Of a DNA stretch of 28,381 bases, positions 20,551-21,113 are shown piece by piece. Every line of letters begins with the position of its first letter. The stretch's first letter is position 1. A model generated the notes under the pieces. The model was not told the origin of the DNA. It did not search any database and worked only from the letters and a program-made list of their open reading frames with translations. The stretch comes from a virus (taxonomy: Duplodnaviria > Heunggongvirae > Uroviricota > Caudoviricetes): the IMG/VR virus record IMGVR_UViG_2909251562_000002; one strand, 5' to 3'. A program made the translations under genes and the position numbers.

Positions 20551-20614
20551 TTAGTTATAACTAACAAGATAGATGTTAACAAAAACATAGTCAATACGAT
20601 TTAGCATTAGCTAA
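20551..20614. promoter_or_regulatory. dicA-dicC intergenic control region with two TTAG-N6-CTAA operator-like sites
   Basis: TTAGTTATAACTAA (20551-20564, perfect palindrome) and TTAGCATTAGCTAA (20601-20614) between the divergent genes. Confidence 0.6.
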
Positions 20615-20616
20615 CT

Positions 20617-21024
20617 ATGGAAACAAAAAATTTAACTATCGGCGAACGCATCAGGTATCGTCGGAAAAACCTCAAACACACCCAAAGGTCTCTTGCTAAA
20701 GCCCTGAAAATCTCCCATGTGTCTGTATCACAATGGGAACGGGGTGATAGTGAACCTACAGGGAAGAACCTTTTTGCCCTCAGCAAAGTATTGCAATGCT
20801 CACCAACATGGATTCTATTTGGCGATGAAGACAAGCAACCAACACCACCTGTTGAGAAGCCAGTTGCCTTATCCCCCAAAGAACTAGAGCTCCTTGAGCT
20901 GTTTAATGCACTGCCAGAATCAGAACAGGATACCCAGCTCGCCGAAATGCGAGCTCGAGTAAAAAACTTCAATAAACTCTTTGAAGAATTACTAAAAGCC
21001 CGTCAGCGGACAAATAAAAGATAA
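20617..21024 (+). CDS. dicA: DicA repressor (XRE-family helix-turn-helix), 135 aa
   Basis: ORF-track protein matches DicA; helix-turn-helix QRSLAKALKISHVSVSQWERG. Confidence 0.92.
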   Translation: METKNLTIGERIRYRRKNLKHTQRSLAKALKISHVSVSQWERGDSEPTGKNLFALSKVLQCSPTWILFGDEDKQPTPPVEKPVALSPKELELLELFNALPESEQDTQLAEMRARVKNFNKLFEELLKARQRTNKR

Positions 21025-21084
21025 CATCATCAATGAGTTATCTTTTACCACATCAATTATGTTAGCTATAGCATACAAAATCAC

Positions 21085-21113
21085 TTGACCGATATGTTAG
21101 TCATGGCTAATCT
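21085..21113 (+). promoter_or_regulatory. Candidate dicB-operon promoter with an overlapping operator-like site
   Basis: TTGACC, 17-bp spacer, TAATCT; TTAGTCATGGCTAA at 21097-21110 overlaps the spacer and -10. Confidence 0.55.

Follow-up and report, generated by a model that had tools for sequence, protein, structure and literature searches.

Palindromic sites flanking dicA in an Escherichia coli Qin prophage very probably represent the known DicA/DicC operators of a P22-type immunity region

Background

In the OR/OL system of phage lambda, divergent genes encode a CI-type and a Cro-type repressor, the two proteins share their operators, both PR and PL are repressed, and the repressor gene is autoactivated from the operator beside PR. 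The Qin prophage of Escherichia coli resembles lambda in all of these respects. However, the lambda operators are 17 bp long and unrelated in sequence to those of Qin, and lambda is induced by RecA-mediated cleavage, whereas Qin uses the antirepressor Rem and is RecA-independent (PMC10448788). Phage P22 was compared on the basis of its annotated record (BK000583.1); structures of its C2 N-terminal domain with the operator are 2R1J and 3JXB. As in Qin, the operators of P22 are 18-bp dyad sites, and a tripartite array, OR1–OR3, runs up to the ATG of the repressor gene, c2. The DNA-binding domain of C2 is homologous to the N-terminal domain of DicA (E = 8e-20), and DicC belongs to the P22_Cro family. 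The half-sites of the two systems differ, being TTAG with a 6-bp centre in Qin and T-N-A-A-G with a 4-bp centre in P22. In addition, DicA, unlike P22 C2, has a short C-terminal domain without a RecA-cleavage site (PMC10448788).

The dic operators were described in 1986–88, as later papers cite (Bejar et al. 1986 NAR 14:6821; 1988 MGG 212:11), and two of them, Om and Oa, were named from sequence in the 1988 paper, according to a later citation of it (PMC3441716). Yun et al. (2012) gave the K-12 Oc operator as TTGTTAGTCATAACTAACAA, which overlaps the -10 element of dicC (PMC3441716). The same study showed that binding to Oc in vivo depends on DicA and is abolished by one A-to-C change in CTAACA, and that DicA bound at Oc, as a dimer, blocks dicC transcription and activates dicA. 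Om and Oa, when cloned singly, did not bind DicA in vivo, which was reported as data not shown (PMC3441716). The DicA site at dicC was also recovered by Reg-Seq, whose authors gave the location of DicA binding at dicB as unknown (PMC7567609). Ragunathan et al. (2023) placed the dicB promoter, dicBp, upstream of ydfA, observed its 22-fold induction upon dicA deletion, cited three operators per intergenic region, and identified Rem as the antirepressor that relieves DicA repression of dicBp (PMC10448788).

For DicC, a 2024 preprint reports a ChIP-seq signal that is strongest in this region, infers binding sites both upstream and downstream of dicA, and describes a 48–84-fold repression of dicA upon DicC induction (PMC11430063). 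The motif given there is a palindrome that pairs TT(A/C/T)G with C(G/A/T)AA; it describes DicC rather than DicA and has, in addition, hundreds of weak matches in the host. No site-level DicA data are contained in the gSELEX and Nat Commun papers.

The Qin locus and its regulatory genes

The window, i.e., the whole stretch of 28,381 bp that was analysed, comes from an E. coli strain and represents its Qin prophage, a defective lambdoid element. The gene annotation was taken from the record of E. coli strain 67-1, which is 100% identical over the region tested. The gene order is rem, hokD, relE, relB, a ydfV remnant, truncated dicC, dicA, ydfA, a ydfB remnant, DicF, dicB, and ydfD. The genes needed for the analysis below are the following:

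20405–20533, minus strand: dicC, Cro-type second repressor, annotated as a pseudogene (Pfam P22_Cro, E = 2e-8)
20617–21024, plus strand: dicA, CI-type repressor of 135 aa (Pfam HTH_3, E = 1e-16)
21191–21346: ydfA, the gene after dicBp
22184–22235: DicF RNA (Rfam, 76.7 bits)

The DicA protein, also assigned to HTH_3 / Phage_CI_repr, is identical to K-12 DicA (WP_000448564.1). Of the 76 residues of full-length dicC, 43 remain (open frame of 44 aa), because a deletion has fused the gene at 20404/20405 to the ydfV remnant beside relB (20197–20533 in the window). Among 5426 complete E. coli genomes, only 4 share this junction. Thus, the Cro arm of the switch is probably dead in this strain, and because dicC is truncated, only the DicA arm and the antirepressor Rem (18951–19202) can operate.

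Several other features of the prophage were recorded. The block of rem, hokD, and relBE (18951–20172) lies immediately beyond the truncated dicC, and a weak isrK-like Rfam match was found at 19329–19410. Colinearity with K-12 stops at 21446, inside ydfB; ydfC is absent, and the other sequence that extends up to DicF (21446–22180) includes a minus-strand ORF of 106 aa (21585–21905) with a hydrophobic-looking product. DicF is followed by a sub-threshold STnc100-like match (22233–22442), which overlaps the start of dicB. The prophage also contains three interrupting insertion sequences, ISCro1/IS66-like, IS1414/IS256-like, and IS3 (6296–8911, 17563–18771, and 26861–28023), of which IS3 splits the integrase.

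Palindromic sites in the window

The initial annotation had noted three 14-bp sites with TTAG at one end and CTAA at the other. All three are present, and they are the sole exact matches to TTAG-N6-CTAA in the window:

20551–20564, plus strand: site 1, TTAGTTATAACTAA
20601–20614, plus strand: site 2, TTAGCATTAGCTAA
21097–21110, plus strand: site 3, TTAGTCATGGCTAA

All of them are located within the two intergenic regions that flank dicA. The expected number of exact matches in the window is 0.34, and three or more were reached in 2 of 100 dinucleotide shuffles. Their half-sites also fit those of the DicC motif of the ChIP-seq preprint, a comparison that covers the half-sites only (PMC11430063). 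When one mismatch was allowed, three extra core matches appeared (4342, 11394, and 11440), which is below the chance prediction. Since these are situated inside annotated genes (tail fibre and cspI/ynfQ), they were treated as chance matches.

Each 14-mer forms the core of a functional unit of 18 bp, TGTTAG-N6-CTAACA, which has at least five members in the window. A relaxed search with this 18-bp pattern (12 bases, up to three mismatches) revealed no window-wide enrichment, with 16 matches found against 11.2 expected; matches were kept only if they had at most two mismatches and adjoined dicA. Two further matches with at most two mismatches, at 4398 and 11465, were treated as chance because they, too, lie inside annotated genes (tail fibre and cspI/ynfQ). 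Because TTAG-N6-CTAA is a post hoc choice made from the window, the decisive test of it is an independent one, which was provided by homologous loci.

The left array and the dicC and dicA promoters

The gap between the divergent genes dicC and dicA is filled by three 18-bp sites (20549–20616) in an 18-7-18-7-18 arrangement, together with the dicC promoter (dicCp):

20549–20566: Oc, OR1-equivalent, TGTTAGTTATAACTAACA; a perfect palindrome here, containing site 1
20574–20591: Om, OR2-equivalent, TGTTAACAAAAACATAGT; degenerate, in the dicCp spacer and -35
20599–20616: Oa, OR3-equivalent, ATTTAGCATTAGCTAACT; abuts the dicA ATG and contains site 2
20566–20594, minus strand: dicCp, PR-equivalent; -35 TTGACT (20594–20589), 17-nt spacer, -10 TATCTT (20571–20566)

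The published 20-nt Oc corresponds to positions 20548–20567 and reads CTGTTAGTTATAACTAACAA here, matching the K-12 operator at 18 of 20 positions and at the same place relative to the dicC -10/+1. Thus, Oc overlaps the -10 element and the probable +1 of dicCp. This promoter was the sole promoter-like site called by a consensus scan of 20350–21350, and it agrees with the dicC promoter and the 5'RACE start reported for K-12 (PMC3441716). The complement of its -35 element, AGTCAA, is kept in 11 of the 13 homologous loci described below and reads AGTAAA in the other two. The TTAG and CTAA half-sites of Oc are likewise kept in 11 of the 13 loci, with one mismatch in the remaining two, whereas the central 6 bp are variable. 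The core of Om matches at five of eight positions. In Oa, the whole of TTAG is invariant in the 13-locus alignment, as are the three final bases of CTAA, and the C is nearly so.

The array of P22 has an 18-7-18-6-18 arrangement, as compared with 18-7-18-7-18 in Qin, and the position of Om fits OR2. The sequence of P22 OR3 with the adjoining start codon, ATTTAAGATGACTTAACT-ATG, matches that of Oa, ATTTAGCATTAGCTAACT-ATG, at 12 of the 18 operator positions and is situated in the same place. Moreover, the start context TAACTATG is common to Qin Oa and P22 PRM, and the P22 annotation places the 5' end of the PRM transcript 4 nt upstream of the ATG of c2. Based on this homology to P22, the -10 element of the dicA promoter (TAGCAT, 20602–20607; TAGAAT in most homologues) is probably located inside Oa, and dicA transcription would start at about 20613, giving a nearly leaderless mRNA. 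Accordingly placed, the -10 hexamer overlaps the left half-site, and part of the TTAG conservation in Oa may serve this hexamer and not protein binding.

The right array and dicBp

Downstream of dicA, two sites are associated with dicBp:

21060–21077: OL2-equivalent, TGTTAGCTATAGCATACA; left half-site perfect, right half-site degenerate
21095–21112: OL1-equivalent, TGTTAGTCATGGCTAATC; contains site 3
21085–21113, plus strand: dicBp, PL-equivalent; -35 TTGACC (21085–21090), 17-nt spacer, -10 TAATCT (21108–21113)

OL2 ends 7 bp before the -35 element of dicBp, and the starts of OL2 and OL1 are 35 bp apart. OL1 starts 4 nt past the -35 and covers five of the six bases of the -10; its left half is identical to the left half of K-12 Oc. 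The TTAG and CTAA of OL1 are invariant in 13/13 loci, with a variable central 6 bp, and part of the CTAA conservation may serve the overlapping -10 hexamer and not protein binding. At the OL2 position, 34–36 bp upstream of OL1, an exact TTAG-N6-CTAA is present in 4 of the 13 loci, and most of the others are one mismatch away.

The same geometry is observed in P22, where the OL2 and OL1 starts are also offset by 35 bp (OL2-17 bp-OL1) and OL1 also lies 4 nt past the -35. The P22 PL promoter is TTGACC-17-TAAATT, with +1 at the A of CCATCA, and the layout of dicBp aligns with it (TTGACC-17-TAAnnT). By homology with PL, the +1 of dicBp would be at about 21121, the A of GCATCAA. The dicBp sequence is 100% identical to that of K-12, and the TTG, the -10, and CATCAA are conserved across the 13 loci. 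The promoter proposed upstream of ydfA in the initial annotation is therefore present and overlaps site 3 as stated; describing it as well formed was generous, since its -10, TAATCT, agrees with TATAAT at only three of six positions, and the promoter was not called by the consensus scan.

P22 has three left operators, OL1–OL3, whereas a clear third left operator was not found in the Qin window. When an OL3 equivalent was sought upstream of OL2 (21025–21059), both in the window and in the homologues, only a weak half-site resemblance was detected.

The dicBp leader carries two hairpins, ACACCG-CA-CGGTGT (21127–21140) and CCCC-AGCGTTAA-GGGG (21162–21177), the second of which immediately precedes the ribosome-binding site of ydfA. 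In homologous loci, among them some with a different operator type, the same or a closely similar leader stretch again follows the promoter, and it may be a nutL-like or other leader element. An Rfam scan of 19000–23000 gave no match at the operator regions or at the leader hairpins.

Operators in loci of DicA homologues

Loci encoding DicA homologues were taken from phage records and from contigs of one genome per species. Thirteen of them encode repressors that are 56–100% identical and have the recognition helix (S/A)HV(S/T)(V/I)SQWE. They come from eight or more genera, including Escherichia, Citrobacter, Enterobacter, Serratia, Pantoea, Rosenbergiella, and Buttiauxella, as well as from two phages. 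The 13 loci share ancestry and include the close pairs L017/L019, L018/L020, and L011/L014, so that they represent fewer than 13 independent lineages. The repressor flanks were taken as the 100 nt upstream of the gene and the 160 nt that follow it, 3.4 kb in total. All 41 exact TTAG-N6-CTAA sites of these loci flank the repressor gene, and none is present in the 41,868 bp elsewhere. In an unbiased enumeration of all palindromes with a half-site of 4–5 nt and a spacer of 0–10, TTAG-N6-CTAA ranked first and was found in 13/13 loci. The motif scan of the window and related loci that had been proposed as a check thus came out in favour of the sites, which are confined to the repressor flanks and exceed the chance level.

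When the two intergenic regions were aligned across the loci, few columns proved invariant or almost so; these include the half-site bases, along with portions of the promoter elements and of the start region. The central 6 bp and the inter-site spacers vary.

Homologues with a different recognition helix lack TTAG-N6-CTAA in 34.8 kb. At the corresponding positions they have different palindromes, and the Cro-type partner shows a parallel change of its helix:

Helix (S/A)HV(S/T)(V/I)SQWE: TTAG-N6-CTAA, 41 in flanks, 0 outside, 13/13 loci
Helix SHVT(I/V)(F/Y)KWE: CTTA-N8-TAAG, 15 in flanks, 0 outside, 7/7 loci
Helix SSVSVFKWE: TAAC-N4-GTTA, 9 in flanks, 0 outside, 3/3 loci

Judged from these sequences, the DicA family falls into three or more immunity specificities, which follow the recognition helix (including loci L005, L021–L028, and L033). 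Such covariation between helix and operator is what the operators of an immunity system should show, and it rules out chance and simple shared ancestry.

In addition, a 40%-identical homologue from Symbiopectobacterium purcellii (L029) has a helix, SHVSISQWERGE, that is nearly the same as that of DicA, yet P22-type operators such as ATTAAAGAAAACTTAAAT lie upstream of its gene. Consequently, helix 3 alone does not decide between the TTAG-N6 and TNAAG-N4 types. Escherichia phage PhiR42_1 (L003; PV340562.1), a 48.7-kb record from ECOR13 deposited as a complete phage, encodes a DicA that is 100% identical to that of the window; its Oc is of the K-12 type, its dicC is full-length, and its dicBp operators are those of the window. 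Hence, a phage that appears to be complete can carry the Qin-type immunity region as well. A 2.5-kb contig of a MAG labelled Collinsella sp. (L009) encodes a DicA that is 99% identical to the E. coli protein and is most likely a mis-binned E. coli fragment.

Interpretation and alternative explanations

The features of P22-type immunity operators found at this locus are a shared half-site, two arrays, overlap with promoters, neighbouring CI- and Cro-type genes, and covariation with the recognition helix. We consider, with a probability of roughly 0.9, that the palindromes are the known DicA/DicC operators of the Qin immunity region in a P22-type layout. OL2 and OL1 lie on either side of the -35 of dicBp, which drives the division-inhibitor operon ydfA-dicF-dicB, and its -10 is covered as well. 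In the proposed mechanism, DicA would repress dicBp by occupying OL1, with the help of OL2, thereby excluding RNA polymerase from the -10. Oa would act like OR3, overlapping the -10 and +1 of a weak dicA promoter, and DicC, or an excess of cooperatively bound DicA, would shut off dicA through it.

It is possible, though in our view rather doubtful, that Oa and perhaps Om are bound by DicC only and/or are parts of the core promoter and start of dicA, in which case the family would mix the targets of two proteins. DicA bound neither Oa nor Om alone in vivo (PMC3441716), and in view of this single-site result, DicA binding to site 2 is unsupported. In the DicC preprint (PMC11430063), DicC represses dicA 48–84-fold, gives its strongest ChIP peak between dicC and dicA, and follows a TTNG...CNAA motif. 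Oa itself carries the -10-like TAGCAT (TAGAAT in most homologues) and the start context TAACTATG, as P22 PRM does. Nevertheless, all operators of lambda, and likewise those of P22, are used by both the CI-type repressor and Cro, with different orders of affinity, and the occupancy of OR2 and OR3 by the repressor requires cooperativity, which is invisible to a single-site assay. Oa is also a symmetric match to the Oc half-site, and its right half, CTAA, is conserved beyond the needs of a -10. Site 2, which overlaps the dicA promoter, is more probably bound by DicC (as a Cro-type site) or cooperatively, and the DicC-only reading of Oa and Om refines the assignment of the palindromes to the DicA/DicC operators rather than replacing it.

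That the palindromes arose by chance in AT-rich intergenic DNA, or are conserved merely through recent sharing of the whole region, has a probability close to negligible. The pattern was indeed chosen post hoc, two in 100 shuffles of the window reach three matches, and the relaxed pattern gives 16 matches against 11.2 expected. However, the 41 sites in 3.4 kb of flanks against 0 in 41.9 kb outside were found beside repressors only 56–73% identical, the half-sites are invariant in comparison with the variable central 6 bp and spacers, and the motif switches with the recognition helix; for Oc, binding is known from experiment (PMC3441716). The confinement to the flanks, the half-site conservation, and the motif–helix covariation refute the chance reading. 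We also regard it as very improbable that a host factor, such as YjdC/DicD or H-NS/Cnu, and not the prophage repressors, is the main protein to recognise the sites. YjdC occupies dicABC in ChIP-qPCR experiments and affects dic transcripts (PMC9283627), and CnuK9E-H-NS antagonises DicA at Oc (PMC3441716). Yet the motif covaries with the helices of the prophage repressor and its Cro partner across genera, which would be unexpected for a host TetR-family protein or H-NS, and deletion of dicA alone derepresses dicBp (PMC10448788).

The assignment to DicA/DicC operators means that the sites are ordinary and already known, and that the earlier interpretation was essentially right but incomplete. The layout had been taken as that of repressor operators controlling the division-inhibition operon; they are operators, but sites 1 and 2 act on the dicC/dicA switch and not on the dicB operon directly. 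Similarly, TTAG-N6-CTAA correctly describes Oc, Oa, and OL1 as a family and misses the degenerate members, Om and OL2. [quoted passage not shown] This role is already established, so that no new biology is added. The modest additions are a base-level map of five sites relative to P22 and the three operator specificities that track the recognition helix. In addition, the cross-genus sequence evidence suggests OL1/OL2 as the candidate DicA site at dicBp.

A variant Oc in comparison with K-12

The Qin prophage of K-12 contains the same locus, and the block 20405–21445 (1041 bp) is colinear and identical at 1039 of 1041 positions. Oa, Om, OL2, OL1, dicBp, and DicA are all identical to those of the window, whereas K-12 dicC is full-length (76 residues) and that of the window strain is truncated. 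The two differences are substitutions in the window, T to C at 20548 and C to T at 20556, and both fall within the 20-nt Oc (20548–20567). The change at 20556 makes GTTAGTTATAACTAAC a perfect palindrome. If the differences were randomly placed, the chance of both landing in Oc would be about 4e-4, a value that comes from a post hoc test. The Oc variant was found in only 5 of the 842 E. coli genomes with the region, and four of these five also carry the dicC deletion junction.

A further reading, which we consider unlikely, is that Oc was retuned by selection after the loss of the Cro arm, e.g., toward tighter DicA binding, and that, separately, Oa is DicC-specific and dicA has a near-leaderless promoter. 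As an alternative to retuning, the two changes in Oc could be drift. If the retuning did occur, tighter DicA binding together with autoactivation could lock the division-inhibitor operon off.
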